In this document: in pieces, positions 1 through 5,109 of the stretch | Numbering within the stretch: the stretch's first letter is position 1 | Layout: each line of letters begins with the position of its first letter | Assembly (NCBI RefSeq): GCF_046105845.1 | Contig: NZ_CP151004.1 | Length of the DNA: 64,000 nt | Strand: one strand, 5' to 3' | From: Escherichia coli | GTDB taxonomy: Bacteria > Pseudomonadota > Gammaproteobacteria > Enterobacterales > Enterobacteriaceae | Translations under genes and position numbers: made by a program | Notes under the pieces: generated by a model | Told to the model about the DNA's origin: nothing | What the model saw: only the letters and a program-made list of their open reading frames with translations | Database searches by the model: none

Positions 1-1
1 C

Positions 2-1009
2 GCTATTTTCGGCGGGAAAAGACGAGTAAGAATTTCAAGTCAAAGCCTTAAACGTGCGATGCGTAAAAGTGATTATTACGCACAAAATATTGGTGAATCC
101 AGTCTCAGAACAATTCATCTTGCACAATTACGTGATGTTCTTCGGCAAAAACTTGGTGAACGTTTTGACCAAAAAATCATCGATAAGACATTAGCGCTGC
201 TCTCCGGTAAATTAGTTGATGAAGCCGAAAAGATTTCTGCCGATGCGGTTACTCCATGGGTTGTGGGAGAAATAGCCTGGTTCTGTGAGCAGGTTGCAAA
301 AGCAGAGGCTGATAATCTGGATGATAAAAAGCTGCTCAAAGTTCTTAAGGAAGATATTGCCGCCATACGTGTGAATTTACAGCAGGGTGTTGATATTGCG
401 CTTAGTGGAAGAATGGCAACCAGCGGCATGATGAGTGAGTTGGGAAAAGTTGATGGTGCAATGTCCATTGCGCATGCGATCACTACTCATCAGGTTGATT
501 CTGATATTGACTGGTTCACCGCTGTAGATGATTTACAGGAACAAGGTTCTGCACATCTGGGAACTCAGGAATTTTCATCGGGTGTTTTTTATCGTTATGC
601 CAACATTAACCTCGCTCAACTTCAGGAAAATTTAGGTGGAGCCTCCAGGGAGCAGGCTCTGGAAATTGCAACCCATGTTGTTCATATGCTGGCAACAGAG
701 GTCCCTGGAGCAAAACAGCGTACTTATGCCGCTTTTAACCCTGCGGATATGGTAATGGTTAATTTCTCCGATATGCCACTTTCTATGGCAAATGCTTTTG
801 AAAAAGCGGTTAAAGCGAAAGATGGCTTTTTGCAACCGTCTATACAGGCGTTTAATCAATATTGGGATCGCGTTGCCAATGGATATGGTCTGAACGGAGC
901 AGCTGCGCAATTCAGCTTATCTGATGTAGACCCAATTACTGCTCAAGTTAAACAAATGCCTACTTTAGAACAGTTAAAATCCTGGGTTCGTAATAATGGC
1001 GAGGCGTGA
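2..1009 (+). CDS. casC: Cascade subunit CasC (Cas7e), 5' end cut by window edge
   Basis: Reading frame is open from nt 2 to the stop at 1009; the 316-aa track ORF is the C-terminal part. Followed directly by casD, casE, cas1, cas2 and a type I-E array. Confidence 0.85.
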
Positions 1010-1011
1010 AC

Positions 1012-1686
1012 ATGAGATCTTATTTGATCTTGCGGCTTGCTGGGCCAATGCAAGCCTGGGGGCAGCCGACCTTTGAAGGAACGCGACCTACCAGAAGATT
1101 TCCGACCCGAAGCGGGTTATTAGGGCTACTCGGGGCTTGTCTTGGGATCCAACGTGATGATACTTCTTCATTACAGGCGTTATCAGAGAGTGTGCAATTT
1201 GCAGTGCGCTGCGATGAACTCATTCTTGACGATCGTCGTGTGTCTGTAACGGGGTTGCGTGATTACCATACAGTCCTTGGAGCGCGAGAAGATTACCGTG
1301 GTTTGAAAAGTCATGAAACGATTCAAACATGGCGCGAATATTTATGTGATGCCTCCTTTACCGTCGCTCTCTGGTTAACACCCCATGCAACGATGGTTAT
1401 CTCAGAACTTGAAAAAGCAGTATTAAAGCCTCGGTATACACCCTACCTGGGGCGAAGAAGTTGCCCACTAACACACCCGCTTTTTTTGGGGACATGTCAG
1501 GCATCGGATCCTCAGAAGGCGCTATTAAATTATGAGCCCGTTGGCGGCGATATTTATAGTGAGGAATCAGTTACAGGGCATCATTTAAAATTTACGGCGC
1601 GCGACGAACCGATGATCACCTTACCTCGACAATTTGCTTCCCGAGAATGGTATGTGATTAAAGGAGGTATGGATGTATCTCAGTAA
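1012..1686 (+). CDS. casD: Cascade subunit CasD (Cas5e)
   Basis: Track ORF 1006..1686; ATG at 1012 gives MRSYLILRLAGPMQAWG..., recognised as E. coli CasD; 3' end overlaps casE by 14 nt. Confidence 0.9.
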   Translation: MRSYLILRLAGPMQAWGQPTFEGTRPTRRFPTRSGLLGLLGACLGIQRDDTSSLQALSESVQFAVRCDELILDDRRVSVTGLRDYHTVLGAREDYRGLKSHETIQTWREYLCDASFTVALWLTPHATMVISELEKAVLKPRYTPYLGRRSCPLTHPLFLGTCQASDPQKALLNYEPVGGDIYSEESVTGHHLKFTARDEPMITLPRQFASREWYVIKGGMDVSQ

Positions 1687-2272
1687 AGTCATCATTGCCA
1701 GGGCCTGGAGCAGGGATCTTTACCAACTTCACCAGGGATTATGGCATTTATTTCCAAACAGACCGGATGCTGCTCGTGATTTTCTTTTTCATGTTGAGAA
1801 GCGAAACACACCAGAAGGCTGTCATGTTTTATTGCAGTCAGCGCAAATACCTGTTTCAACTGCCGTTGCGACAGTCATTAAAACTAAACAGGTTGAATTT
1901 CAACTTCAGGTTGGTGTTCCACTCTATTTTCGGCTTCGGGCAAATCCGATCAAAACTATTCTCGACAATCAAAAGCGCCTGGACAGTAAAGGGAATATTA
2001 AACGCTGTCGGGTTCCGTTAATAAAAGAAGCAGAACAAATCGCGTGGTTGCAACGTAAATTGGGCAATGCGGCGCGCGTTGAAGATGTGCATCCCATATC
2101 GGAACGGCCACAGTATTTTTCTGGTGATGGTAAAAGTGGAAAGATCCAAACGGTTTGCTTTGAAGGGGTGATCACCATCAACGACGCGCCAGTGTTAATA
2201 GATCTTGTACAGCAAGGTATTGGGCCAGCTAAATCGATGGGATGTGGCTTGCTATCTTTGGCTCCACTGTGA
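1673..2272 (+). CDS. casE: CRISPR repeat endoribonuclease CasE (Cas6e)
   Basis: 199-aa ORF MYLSKVIIARAWSRDLYQLHQGLWHLF..., recognised as Cas6e; position between casD and cas1. Confidence 0.92.
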   Translation: MYLSKVIIARAWSRDLYQLHQGLWHLFPNRPDAARDFLFHVEKRNTPEGCHVLLQSAQIPVSTAVATVIKTKQVEFQLQVGVPLYFRLRANPIKTILDNQKRLDSKGNIKRCRVPLIKEAEQIAWLQRKLGNAARVEDVHPISERPQYFSGDGKSGKIQTVCFEGVITINDAPVLIDLVQQGIGPAKSMGCGLLSLAPL

Positions 2273-2287
2273 TTGAGGTGTAATAAA

Positions 2288-3205: not shown

Positions 3206-3206
3206 A

Positions 3207-3491
3207 ATGAGTATGTTGGTCGTGGTCACTGAAAATGTACCTCCGCGCTTACGAGGTAGATTAGCCATCTGGTTGTTGGAGGTACGTGCAGGGGTGTATG
3301 TAGGTGATGTATCCGCAAGAATCCGTGAAATGATCTGGGAACAAATATCTGGACTGGCGGAAGAAGGCAATGTGGTGATGGCATGGGCTACGAATACGGA
3401 ATCGGGATTTGAGTTCCAGACATTTGGGGTAAACAGGCGTACTCCGGTAGATTTGGATGGTTTAAGGTTGGTCTCTTTTTTACCTGTTTAA
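3207..3491 (+). CDS. cas2: Cas2 (type I-E)
   Basis: Internal ATG of track ORF 3102..3491 gives 94 aa [35 protein letters not shown]..., recognised as E. coli Cas2 (YgbF); immediately upstream of the leader. Confidence 0.9.
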
Positions 3492-3596
3492 AAACAAAGA
3501 ATTAGCTGATCTTTAATAATAAGGAAATGTTACATTAAGGTTGGTGGGTTGTTTTTATGGGAAAAAATGCTTTAAGAACAAATGTATACTTTTAGA
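3492..3596 (+). promoter_or_regulatory. CRISPR leader (AT-rich, contains the array promoter)
   Basis: 105-bp AT-rich segment between the cas2 stop and the first repeat; in type I-E systems the leader sits here and new spacers are added at this end. Confidence 0.6.
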
Positions 3597-5089
3597 GAGT
3601 TCCCCGCGCCAGCGGGGATAAACCGTCCGATCCGAAAAAACGGGTAGTCGCCTACGAGAGTTCCCCGCGCCAGCGGGGATAAACCGCCCAGTGGCGAAGG
3701 GCAACGTAAGCATAAAACGAGTTCCCCGCGCCAGCGGGGATAAACCGGGGTAACACCGTGGCAGCAAGTCGATCCGCTGGAGTTCCCCGCGCCAGCGGGG
3801 ATAAACCTGATGCGCGCCGACTTGAATCACTGCGCATGGCGAGTTCCCCGCGCCAGCGGGGATAAACCGATGGACCGTGCCGCTTTTCGCCACCTGACGC
3901 CGAGTTCCCCGCGCCAGCGGGGATAAACCGTGGCTCCGGTCGGGGCCCGCCGCTTGCGGTGGGAGTTCCCCGCGCCAGCGGGGATAAACCGGTGCGTGAA
4001 TTATCTATCCAGGCAAAAGTAACGAGTTCCCCGCGCCAGCGGGGATAAACCGCATATTTTTCAGGATATCTATAAATGGGCGGGGAGTTCCCCGCGCCAG
4101 CGGGGATAAACCGCTCATCAAAATAATCGGCATTGTCAGAAATCCGAGTTCCCCGCGCCAGCGGGGATAAACCGTGCACTGGCTGACTACGCCGCAGCAC
4201 ATAAATGAGTTCCCCGCGCCAGCGGGGATAAACCGATAATTGATGCGATCTGGTCCACTACAGTGGCGAGTTCCCCGCGCCAGCGGGGATAAACCGTAGT
4301 TGCTGTTTAGGCTGTGTTGTGGTTACCAGAGTTCCCCGCGCCAGCGGGGATAAACCGACCTGCTCGCGATGCGTCTGCCGCTGGAACCCGAGTTCCCCGC
4401 GCCAGCGGGGATAAACCGTTGCGCGATCCATCGCTCAGCTTTGATCATGAGAGTTCCCCGCGCCAGCGGGGATAAACCGCGCAGCGCCGACGAACTGGAC
4501 GGCGCTATAAAGAGTTCCCCGCGCCAGCGGGGATAAACCGATGTGGCAGAAATTGATGGAGCGGATGTGCGAGAGTTCCCCGCGCCAGCGGGGATAAACC
4601 GATTTAGATACGGCACACAGGAATGCGCTGGATGAGTTCCCCGCGCCAGCGGGGATAAACCGCGGCTGGCTGTAATAATGCACGGCAGTGTGACGAGTTC
4701 CCCGCGCCAGCGGGGATAAACCGTGAATAATAAGGCGCTGACGGGCGATATTACGGAGTTCCCCGCGCCAGCGGGGATAAACCGGAACAACCTGAACGGA
4801 TGCCACCTTTTCACCTGAGTTCCCCGCGCCAGCGGGGATAAACCAACCGTCAGCATAGACCCATCTAGTCAGATTCTGTGTTCCCCGCGCCAGCGGGGAT
4901 AAACCGGCCCATTCCCCCCATACCGGCGGCAAGTTTAAGTGTTCCCCGCGCCAGCGGGGATAAACCGATTCCGTCAAATTTATCACTCAACGCCAGTTCG
5001 TGTTCCCCGCGCCAGCGGGGATAAACCGGGCGCACTGGATGCGATGATGGATATCACTTAGAATTCCCCGCCCCTGCGGTAGAACTCGC
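3597..5089 (+). CRISPR. Type I-E CRISPR array: 24 full 29-bp repeats, one degenerate terminal repeat, 24 spacers of 32 bp
   Basis: Repeat GAGTTCCCCGCGCCAGCGGGGATAAACCG recurs with an exact 61-bp period from 3597 to 5000. The last three full repeats begin GTG instead of GAG, and repeats 4 and 21 differ in their last base. Degenerate repeat GAATTCCCCGCCCCTGCGGTAGAACTCG at 5061..5089. Confidence 0.97.
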
Positions 5090-5109
5090 AGCTCTCATTT
5101 TCAACCCCA

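Follow-up and report, generated by a model that had tools for sequence, protein, structure and literature searches.

A K-12-type type I-E CRISPR-Cas locus in a divergent Escherichia coli lineage, with spacers matching P1-like phage-plasmids and IncF plasmids

The closest described counterpart of the locus analysed here is the type I-E CRISPR-Cas system of Escherichia coli K-12 MG1655, which consists of cas3-casABCDE-cas1-cas2 together with CRISPR-1 by iap (b2753-b2761). The K-12 system is silenced by H-NS, and activity of the system in natural isolates has not been demonstrated (PMC10910852). A second E. coli I-E cas variant also lies between cysH and iap, where it adjoins an identical Iap protein allele. 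Its arrays contain I-E-type repeats within 3 mismatches of the repeat consensus reported below, as well as a diverged copy of our last spacer (3 mismatches), but the lengths of its Cas2 (97 aa), CasE (216 aa), CasD (248 aa), CasC (351 aa), CasB (178 aa), CasA (520-522 aa) and Cas3 (885-899 aa) proteins are unlike those of the K-12 type. Finally, type I-E arrays of Klebsiella pneumoniae are reported to affect the uptake of blaKPC-IncF plasmids (PMC7301723). The Klebsiella system resembles the present one in being a chromosomal I-E system linked to IncF resistance plasmid acquisition, while belonging to another species and to another cas/repeat lineage.

We analysed a 64-kb stretch of E. coli DNA (the window), the beginning of which had been described in an initial annotation as a type I-E locus with a 24-spacer array; that observation is confirmed. 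With a probability of roughly 0.88, we read the locus as the 3' two-thirds of a canonical E. coli type I-E CRISPR-Cas system (CRISPR-1, iap side), carried by a lineage that is ~1% diverged from every complete RefSeq E. coli genome. Compared to K-12 MG1655, position, gene order and gene lengths are the same, the window is collinear from casC to luxS, the 29-nt repeat consensus is identical, and the same degenerate terminal repeat is present. The Cas proteins are of equal length and differ by 1-4 substitutions each, while the ancestral last spacer is common to both (31/32). In contrast, the array holds 24 spacers rather than the 13 of K-12, with only that last one in common, and the flanking DNA is merely 96.4-98.0% identical. 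The window thus carries the K-12-type cas variant, and by megablast its cas block was found in 1,222 of 5,426 complete E. coli genomes. As the initial annotation had recognised from its architecture and repeat, this is the already known, textbook E. coli I-E locus, and the system itself teaches nothing new.

The gene order given previously, casC (partial)-casD-casE-cas1-cas2, proved correct to the base, and each of the five ORFs, all on the + strand, scored above its NCBIfam curated cut-off. The casC (cas7e) gene is represented by its 3' 335 codons (1..1009, with the scored ORF at 2-1009; TIGR01869, 371.9 bits, cut-off 178), its first 28 codons falling upstream of the window; 332 of these 335 residues equal K-12 CasC (3 substitutions), and the segment agrees at every residue with the last 335 aa of CasC from a relative, L110, whose full-length protein has 363 aa. 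It is followed by casD (cas5e; 1012..1686, 224 aa; TIGR01868, 289.6 bits), in which G28R is the sole substitution relative to K-12, and by the pre-crRNA endonuclease gene casE (cas6e; 1673..2272, 199 aa; TIGR01907, 265.9 bits), with 3 substitutions. Identity of these three products to the K-12 proteins is 98.5-99.6%. R28 of CasD is a rare allele and serves as a lineage marker, the exact protein being present in only 27 index blocks. Both cas1 (cas1e; 2288..3205, 305 aa; TIGR03638, 378.4 bits, cut-off 215.6) and cas2 (cas2e; 3207..3491, 94 aa; TIGR01873, 141.4 bits, cut-off 33.15) encode common alleles with 3 and 4 substitutions, respectively. Family models were therefore matched for the type I-E Cascade subunits Cas7e, Cas5e and Cas6e as well as for the subtype-specific adaptation proteins Cas1e and Cas2e. 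The signature genes cas3, casA (cse1) and casB (cse2), which the initial annotation placed upstream, fall outside the window. Taking relatives as a proxy for this strain, every full-length same-lineage contig encodes Cas3, CasA and CasB at the K-12 lengths (888, 502 and 160 aa) and with the expected Pfam domains, and translation of the L110 genes met no internal stop, their products sharing 96-98% identity with K-12.

As is usual for type I-E, an A+T-rich leader separates cas2 from repeat 1. This leader (3492..3596, + strand) is 105 bp long, matches the K-12 MG1655 CRISPR-1 leader at 105/105 positions, and is 73.3% A+T versus 47.2% in the whole window, in keeping with its earlier description as AT-rich. 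A simple consensus scan found no sigma-70 site in it; putative promoter and IHF-site assignments follow from its identity to the K-12 leader. By analogy with K-12, the array would be transcribed from the leader on the + strand, and CasE would cut the repeat at the base of its hairpin to give 61-nt crRNAs with the 5' handle AUAAACCG. Cascade (CasA1 B2 C6 D1 E1) bearing a crRNA would find a PAM-flanked target and recruit Cas3 for degradation, and Cas1-Cas2 would insert 33-bp prespacers at the leader-repeat junction. Both crRNA production and DNA interference are predicted here from near-identity to K-12, and the operon is probably repressed by H-NS by default, as in that strain.

The array (3597..5060, + strand) consists of 24 repeats of 29 nt and 24 spacers of exactly 32 nt (24/24), hereafter S1 to S24 from the leader. 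Repeats start at 3597 + 61*i (i = 0..23), so that the 61-bp periodicity noted earlier is exact throughout. A 26-nt repeat core was present 24 times without a mismatch, against 0 matches in 100 dinucleotide-preserving shuffles, and the window contained no further repeat copy outside the array on either strand. The repeat folds into a 7-bp GC hairpin (-15.1 kcal/mol, z = -3.6). The 29-nt (28+1) palindromic hairpin repeats and 32-nt (33-bp) spacers expected of type I-E are thus present, and spacers held in common with other arrays sit at the trailer end. Run over the whole window at Rfam gathering thresholds, cmscan gave five tRNAs and MicA as its sole matches and none to a CRISPR-DR covariance model, which is no argument against the array. 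Our count also agrees with the annotated 24 full repeats plus a degenerate terminal repeat at iap: the latter (5061..5089, + strand) matches the consensus at 18/29 positions, is homologous to the K-12 terminal repeat and folds weakly (-7.3 kcal/mol), and the iap ORF (5110-6147, - strand) begins 20 bp beyond it. Details beyond the initial annotation are a GTG rather than GAG start in repeats 22-24 and the deviating last base of repeat 4 (T, 3808) and of repeat 21 (A, 4845).

The T of repeat 4 is explained by the spacer that follows. Together with this preceding base, S4 forms a 33-mer (3808..3840, + strand) that is the exact reverse complement (33/33) of G plus spacer 2 in the queE-ygcE array of strain NY1601. 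The unit opens with T and closes with C, which is complementary to the G of the PAM. Shmakov et al. 2014 (PMC4027179) described oppositely oriented spacers from primed adaptation of E. coli in the laboratory, and S4 is like them in being a 33-bp unit that starts with a base other than G, ends in C and has an exact reverse-complement twin. The pair differs from theirs in coming from wild strains and from two arrays (CRISPR-1 here, CRISPR-2 in NY1601) rather than from one experimental population. Judging from this complementarity, S4 is an inverted ("flipped") spacer, the product of a rare integration of a 33-bp prespacer, and repeat 4 ends in T because S4 was inserted inverted. It is very improbable that the odd ends of repeats 4 and 21 are both plain point mutations, uninformative on spacer integration. 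Repeat 21 would fit that explanation, in that the only related targets carry G at -1, also differ at positions 1 and 3 and do not give the source sequence; its variant is moreover inherited by a sister array (see below) and is for that reason old. Repeat 4, however, bears the mark specific to an AAG prespacer integrated in reverse (PMC4027179), with S4 ending in C, and chance mutation would not yield a full 33/33 complement. We therefore retain the view that S4 represents a wild inverted prespacer whose correctly oriented twin survives in NY1601, and that it is probably useless for interference.

The initial annotation had proposed searching each spacer for targets and self-targets. Targets were identifiable for 7 of the 24 spacers (S1, S6, S9, S10, S13, S19 and S21), while none were found for the other 17; in IMG/VR, S2-S5, S7 and S8 gave 0 matches in a search whose positive control gave 77. 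The 5' flank on the spacer-identical strand, for which AAG/AWG is the I-E criterion, was AAG for S1, S6, S9, S10, S13 and S19, and ATG for S21. S1, the newest spacer in the array (3626..3657, + strand) and an exact match to the leader-proximal spacer quoted in the initial annotation, targets parB of P7/IncY-type phage-plasmids, matching NZ_CP012497.1 at 32/32 positions and P7 and plasmid pSBF45b at 31/32. The neighbouring spacers S9 and S10 (4114..4206, + strand) both target P1-like phage-plasmids. S10 matches P1 gene 23 (major head protein) at 32/32 positions and is perfect in 77/77 IMG/VR contigs, and S9 matches an SLT-transglycosylase gene of IncY plasmids, on the opposite strand, also at 32/32. 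In 19 P1-like contigs of IMG/VR the targets of S1 and S10 share a strand and are 601-604 bp apart. This proximity, together with the adjacency in the array of S9 and S10, which both match pSBF45b, shows signs of successive acquisition from a single invader family. The matches of S1, S9 and S10 to P1/P7-like elements agree with a published ranking in which P1, RCS47 and SJ46 are the known phages most often targeted by natural E. coli arrays (PMC10910852).

S6 (3931..3962, + strand) matches at 32/32 positions in ~2,200 IncFII plasmids, its target being the Ter site that lies 371 bp downstream of repA. Of 2,903 PLSDB plasmids matched by a 45-mer spanning the AAG PAM and the 32-nt protospacer, 2,207 fell in the band of at least 99% identity, and the site is perfect in many Klebsiella plasmids too. 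Plasmids with a perfect match include NC_005327.1, which we take to be the CTX-M-15 plasmid pC15-1a. The AAG PAM itself sits within the plasmid Ter site, which is identical to the K-12 TerB core at 17/17 positions. Should the PAM bases be constrained by this Tus-binding site, plasmids would have limited scope to escape through PAM mutation; AAG is the majority form, and a minority AAA variant exists (L003).

The remaining targets are imperfect. S13 (4358..4389, + strand) matches a prophage terminase gene at 30/32 positions, with mismatches at positions 2 and 3, and S19 (4724..4755, + strand) matches a prophage tail gene at 31/32, with a mismatch at position 8 and with three further, weaker repeated copies in the same gene. 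S21 matches phage-plasmids of ~110 kb at 30/32. In all three cases mismatches fall within seed positions 1-8, where published K-12 work leads one to expect that they block direct interference. Taken together, the invaders recorded by this lineage appear to have been mostly P1-like phage-plasmids and IncF plasmids.

The spacer set had been singled out as the strain-specific part of the locus, and our comparison bears this out. No array among the 5,426 complete E. coli genomes carried more than three of the 24 spacers, the best overlap being S22-S24, and the best whole-array alignment reached ~76%, through the repeats only. S1-S11 were absent from every iap-side array of these genomes, and no two consecutive spacers of the lineage-specific S1-S19 occurred together in any of them; S15 occurs singly in EA2. 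JNE23-011 also carries S22-S24, plus two spacers between S23 and S24 that are absent here.

Array differences from the window are seen in relatives with nearly identical flanks, namely 0-1 SNP across the cas block (3,596 bp) and 0-3 SNPs over 7-11 kb. L115 carries S1-S12 followed by S14-S24, without S13. L117 has one additional unit exactly at the leader-repeat junction (leader-R-x11-R-S1...). In the sister array of L110 and L116, which reads x1-x4, S12, x5-x10, S20-S24, only S12 and S20-S24 are in common with the window; the S20-S24 trailer block (4785..5060, + strand) was inherited from a common ancestor, in the same order and including the A-ending repeat before S21 and the GTG repeats. In the sister array the newest spacer, x1, has an AAG-flanked target in traN of F-type plasmids. 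Leader-proximal spacers therefore differ between the two branches, and all but S4 begin after the canonical G. From these nested differences we infer recent spacer gain at the leader end and internal spacer loss, a pattern that suggests recent natural spacer turnover. Recombination and deletion, instead of acquisition, could however account for how the window and sister arrays differ, and x11 could have been lost in the window's branch rather than gained in L117.

A possible but tentative reading is that the lineage has a naturally active I-E system: within a time corresponding to ~4 SNPs in 14.6 kb of flank, its branches would have taken up different spacers near the leader (11 and 4, or more). 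Among them would be perfect matches, flanked by AAG, to P1-like phage-plasmids, to traN of F-type plasmids and to the Ter site of IncFII, and one relative would since have added another. It is somewhat unlikely that the array is instead a fossil, a transcriptionally silent or otherwise inactive relic of ancient encounters whose relatives differ only via deletion and inter-array recombination. The K-12 system, with its identical leader, is silenced by H-NS, and arrays are reported to persist unchanged for very long periods, with deletion driving the diversity of O157:H7 (PMC10910852); deletions are also clear here (S13 in L115, the two JNE23-011 spacers), and the mosaic sharing of single spacers (S15 in EA2, S12 between unlike blocks) fits recombination. 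Set against this, all five cas genes present in the window remain intact, and K-12 lengths are likewise seen for the upstream genes called in the lineage, while branches with nearly identical flanks differ in leader-proximal spacers, several of which have perfect AAG-flanked targets in circulating plasmids. Furthermore, given the absence of S1-S11 and of consecutive S1-S19 pairs from the 5,426 complete genomes, no recombination donor is visible.

We likewise considered whether the P1-like and IncF matches are self-targets, the strain carrying these plasmids and tolerating the spacers with the system off, or with spacers that regulate plasmid or prophage rather than exclude it. Such plasmids are extremely common in E. 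coli (matches to S1, S6 or S10 occupied 2,563 plasmid places among the 5,426 genomes), and self-targeting occurs in ~10% of complete E. coli genomes, in some cases against their own plasmids (PMC10910852). We regard this explanation as quite improbable. Within the 64-kb window no self-target was found at up to 8 mismatches save one 7-mismatch chance match, a result that covers the window only and does not contradict the explanation.

The spacers thus indicate which elements the lineage has met, mainly P1/P7-like phage-plasmids and IncF conjugative plasmids, the main carriers of resistance genes in Enterobacteriaceae. Adaptation by type I-E systems in wild E. coli is still treated as open in the literature, and near-identical relatives with nested array differences provide a natural test of it. 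If the lineage's system is active, it would be a wild counter-example to the prevailing view of essentially frozen E. coli I-E arrays, and would allow direct tests of whether IncF resistance plasmids are excluded.

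The window opened within casC and continued through casD, casE, cas1 and cas2, whose scores all exceeded the curated NCBIfam cut-offs of the type I-E families by a wide margin. These genes were followed by a 105-bp leader (3492-3596) with an A+T content of 73% compared to 47% for the whole window, and then by 24 full repeats of 29 nt, starting at 3597 + 61i, that alternated with 24 spacers of exactly 32 nt each, referred to here as S1 (leader-proximal, newest) to S24 (trailer end). A degenerate repeat (5061-5089, 18/29) terminated the array, and iap (5110-6147, minus strand) began 20 bp past it. 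The 26-nt repeat core occurred 24 times free of mismatches, compared to 0 times in 100 dinucleotide-preserving shuffles, and further repeat copies were absent from both strands of the whole window outside the array. The repeat RNA folded into the expected 7-bp hairpin (-15.1 kcal/mol, z = -3.6). No promoter-like site was detected in the leader by a sigma-70 consensus scan, a simple scan that is uninformative on the K-12 leader promoter. The initial annotation had described a partial casC, casD, casE, cas1 and cas2, an A+T-rich leader and 24 repeats plus a degenerate terminal repeat adjoining iap; this description was confirmed as written, and the leader-proximal spacer that it quoted was exactly S1.

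Comparison with the reference system of E. coli K-12 MG1655 identified this as the E. coli I-E locus already described. The two leaders were identical at 105/105 positions, the repeat consensus was the same, the terminal degenerate repeats were homologous, and the last K-12 spacer matched S24 at 31/32 positions. Cas2, Cas1, CasE and CasD had the K-12 lengths, with 4, 3, 3 and 1 substitutions, respectively, and the portion of CasC inside the window carried 3. Observation and interpretation in the initial annotation were thus both right, including its statement that the system itself was known. Of 5,426 complete E. coli genomes, only 1,222 yielded the K-12-type cas block in a megablast search. 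Other strains had a second I-E cas variant, whose proteins differ in length, next to an identical Iap protein. Among the loci around the exact Iap allele (L105-L113), the identical 345-aa Iap adjoined three locus states, namely K-12-type cas, the second I-E variant and no cas; in the last state a hok-family gene and cysH were the immediate neighbours. The occurrence of these three states beside one Iap allele indicates that the cas block was replaced or deleted without a change in iap.

The whole window, from casC to luxS, aligned collinearly with K-12, with identities of 96.4-98.0%. Among the 5,426 complete genomes, the best match reached no more than 98.5-99.0%, over two long stretches of flanking DNA; the host is thus an E. 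coli lineage without a close relative among these genomes. Several further segments were recorded outside the CRISPR-Cas locus. The rpoS-mutS intergenic region (16218-17082) was short, with ~860 bp in place of the ~6 kb ygbI-ygbN block of K-12; it contained a truncated MarR-family ORF (16296-16595, minus strand, Pfam MarR) and a 78-aa ORF (16804-17040) with no significant family match, and in other strains this region bears annotated hydroxyarylic acid decarboxylase genes. Between hycI and ascB (35557-36284), an insertion of ~900 bp relative to K-12 resembles a type II toxin-antitoxin module, with overlapping genes for a HigB-family toxin (103 aa, PF09907, 80.7 bits) and an HTH_3 antitoxin-like protein (139 aa). 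The interval between ygbA and fhlA, just a few bases long in K-12, encoded a double-TOBE protein of 155 aa (21074-21541, minus strand; PF03459, 118.7 bits). The serV-argV cluster (60072-60800) held five tRNAs and a 140-bp tandem repeat (3.1 copies, 96% identity); the spacing of its Arg tRNA genes was 275, 140 and 140 bp compared to 275, 139 and 275 bp in K-12, so the arrangement of the repeat unit differs. A 24-bp tandem repeat (14171-14240; 2.9 copies, 69% match) lay within nlpD by K-12 collinearity, and the MicA sRNA (63710-63781, minus strand, 83.9 bits) was at its expected position between gshA and luxS.

Searches of phage, plasmid and prophage collections, which the initial annotation had proposed for the spacers, returned targets for 7 of the 24; PAMs are given as the three bases 5' of the protospacer on the strand identical to the spacer. 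Perfect matches (32/32) with an AAG PAM were found for S10 in gene 23 (major head protein) of phage P1, where the match was perfect in 77 of 77 P1-like IMG/VR contigs, for S9 in an SLT-transglycosylase gene of IncY P1-like plasmids such as pSBF45b, and for S1 in the P7/IncY-type parB of NZ_CP012497.1 (31/32 in P7). The S1 and S10 targets lay on the same strand, 601-604 bp apart. A single phage-plasmid family is thus recorded by 3 of the 24 spacers, namely the newest (S1) and two neighbours (S9 and S10). S6 matched IncFII plasmids perfectly, 371 bp downstream of the repA stop, with AAG in the majority form. The remaining matches were to a prophage terminase gene (S13; 30/32, mismatches at positions 2 and 3, AAG), a prophage tail gene (S19; 31/32, mismatch at position 8, AAG) and phage-plasmids of ~110 kb such as PhiR41_1 (S21; 30/32, mismatches at positions 1 and 3, ATG). 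We considered whether mismatches confined to the seed mark escape mutants. This pattern held for S13, S19 and S21 and failed for S1, given a difference at position 21 in its most frequent variant; BLAST finds long perfect runs more easily, and the argument is therefore not pressed. The tail gene matched by S19, in a prophage of E. coli N1420 (L010, 2344-3032), contained the 32-nt stretch in four related versions, of which three lie at 75-bp intervals. An AAG PAM accompanies three of the four, such that a single spacer could address several sites there.

For the other 17 spacers, the phage, plasmid and E. coli collections yielded no target. In exact scans of IMG/VR with N at every sixth position, S2, S3, S4, S5, S7 and S8, as well as x11, a spacer carried by a relative of the window, gave 0 matches each, compared to 77 for the S10 control. 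In a published survey, extending spacer searches to all bacterial genomes and to gut metagenomes reduced the share of unassigned spacers from 95% to 41% (PMC10910852). Weak matches of S22 to Fels-1 (24 nt) and of S6 to an Aeromonas phage (21 nt), as well as matches to Sinorhizobium and Streptomyces plasmids, were dismissed as chance. Self-targets, also raised in the initial annotation, were absent from the window at up to 6 mismatches; a 7-mismatch match of S10 at 41031-41062 was treated as chance.

The S6 target merits separate description. Although the first plasmid inspected had AAA rather than AAG ahead of the site, the AAG form was in the majority, accounting for 2,207 of 2,903 matching PLSDB plasmids in the band of at least 99% identity to a 45-mer query that included AAG. 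These plasmids were from Escherichia, Klebsiella, Shigella and Salmonella and were conjugative in most cases. In the AAG form the site reads GTTGTAACTAAAG followed directly by TGGCTCC; the AAA form exists as a natural variant. The bases directly upstream of the protospacer through its first three bases, TGTTGTAACTAAAG followed by TGG, were identical at 17/17 positions to TerB, which precedes tus in K-12. This identity places the PAM and first protospacer bases of S6 inside what is probably a plasmid Tus-binding terminator, an assignment based on sequence identity. Plasmid R1 employs the Tus/Ter system according to Krabbe et al. 1997, as cited in PMC8347550.

The units that Cas1-Cas2 integrates are 33 bp long and begin with the G of AAG, as established in K-12 (used in PMC4027179), and the nominal last base of the repeat is therefore actually part of the spacer. 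The base preceding the spacer was G in 22 of 24 units. S4 is preceded by T and ends in C, and the 33-mer formed by this T and S4 (3808-3840) was the exact reverse complement of G plus spacer 2 of the queE-ygcE array in strain NY1601. S4 is thus the same prespacer integrated backwards, which explains why repeat 4 ends in T. For AAG protospacers in laboratory populations, the median ratio of correct to inverted spacers was 194:1, and inverted spacers are expected to be non-functional (PMC4027179). The second exception, an A before S21, is old, since the same A is present in the sister array carried by two relatives (L110 and L116). Inversion was rejected for S21, since its 33-mer has a terminal T in place of C and AAG is missing from the opposite strand of related targets.

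The claim that the spacer set is the strain-specific part of the locus held, as at most 3 of the 24 spacers were common with any of the 5,426 complete genomes. With the whole array as query, these genomes gave repeat-level alignments only (~76% at best). With the 24 spacers alone as query, S24 was found in thousands of chromosomes, S22-S23-S24 also occurred in JNE23-011 and JNE112863, and S15 in three iap-side arrays. S4, S17 and S18 also occurred as spacers of other strains; in the three strains fetched, it was the queE-ygcE array rather than the iap-side one that carried them.

The relatives are marked by their CasD. Whereas the exact Cas2, Cas1 and Iap alleles are common (thousands of index blocks), the R28 allele of CasD is rare (only 27) and is the only lineage-specific one; relative L110 first emerged through the exact Iap allele. 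Contigs carrying it differed from the window by 0-1 SNP over the 3,596-bp cas block; downstream, L115 (GCA_044249515.1) had 0 SNPs in 6.7 kb, L116 (GCA_026124145.1) 3 in 7.1 kb and L110 (GCA_052981255.1) 3 in 11 kb. Compared to S1-S24 in the window, L115 carried S1-S12 and S14-S24, without S13. L117, a MEGAHIT-style metagenome contig (k141) that ends within the array, read leader-repeat-x11-repeat-S1 through S22, with one extra leader-proximal spacer, and L110 and L116 carried x1-x4, S12, x5-x10 and S20-S24, where x denotes spacers found in relatives only. The old spacer S22 has a private point mutation in the window, with A at its position 5 (window position 4911) where JNE23-011 and every relative of the lineage have G. 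The newest spacer of L110 and L116, x1, perfectly matched traN of F-type conjugative plasmids with an AAG PAM (L125, 301-332), and traN accounted for almost all of the 1,993 x1-matching E. coli records (all sampled rows but one). Given x1 and the IncFII-directed S6, both branches of the lineage possess an anti-IncF spacer, directed at different sites.

A common trailer block together with differing leader ends is the pattern that polarised acquisition predicts. The presence of S12 in both array types requires that a longer ancestor lost two blocks, that the same protospacer was acquired independently, or that recombination took place. Short-term substitution rates in E. coli are ~2e-7 to 1e-6 per site per year. 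At such typical rates, ~4 SNPs in 14.6 kb would place the split of the two array types ~100 to 1,000 years ago, a crude estimate from very few SNPs. These findings are suggestive of, albeit not conclusive for, recent natural spacer turnover in the lineage. According to the literature, activity in natural isolates is still undemonstrated, and arrays can stay stable for very long periods (PMC10910852); we put the probability that this lineage has a naturally active I-E system at roughly one in three.

The genes cas3, casA and casB lie outside the window, and the initial annotation had cautioned that they might be disrupted. They encoded proteins of 888, 502 and 160 aa, the K-12 lengths, in every full-length lineage contig. 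In L110 they lacked internal stops and were identical to K-12 at 850/888, 493/502 and 157/160 residues, respectively; the cas3-casA intergenic region matched K-12 at 407/414 positions, and L110 CasC was identical to the partial CasC of the window (335/335 residues). Judging by these relatives, the operon is very probably complete in the window's strain. A disruption of the kind feared was seen in a strain outside this lineage with the same Cas2 allele (L098, 373-4300; GCA_964054285.1), where cas3 is split by an IS element, with rve and HTH_Tnp_1 ORFs between fragments of 711 and 196 aa.

Direct observations comprise the gene content, the layout of the array, the hairpin formed by the repeat, targets flanked by PAMs and the polarity with which relatives differ; by analogy with K-12 biochemistry the system would operate as follows. 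The array would be transcribed from the leader and cleaved by CasE into 61-nt crRNAs with the 5' handle AUAAACCG, or AUAAACCU for S4 and AUAAACCA for S21. Cascade surveillance would be followed by Cas3 degradation, new spacers would be integrated by Cas1-Cas2 at the leader-repeat junction, and H-NS would repress the system by default. If expressed, S1, S6, S9 and S10 should interfere directly with phage-plasmids of the P7 type, with P1-like ones and with most IncFII plasmids. S13, S19 and S21, with their seed mismatches, should at most prime new acquisition. No activity is expected of S4, unless its side of the target chances to have a usable PAM. Taken together, the analysis adds a decoded spacer list, a Ter-site target, an inverted spacer and a few relatives on which natural adaptation by the E. 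coli I-E system could be tested.
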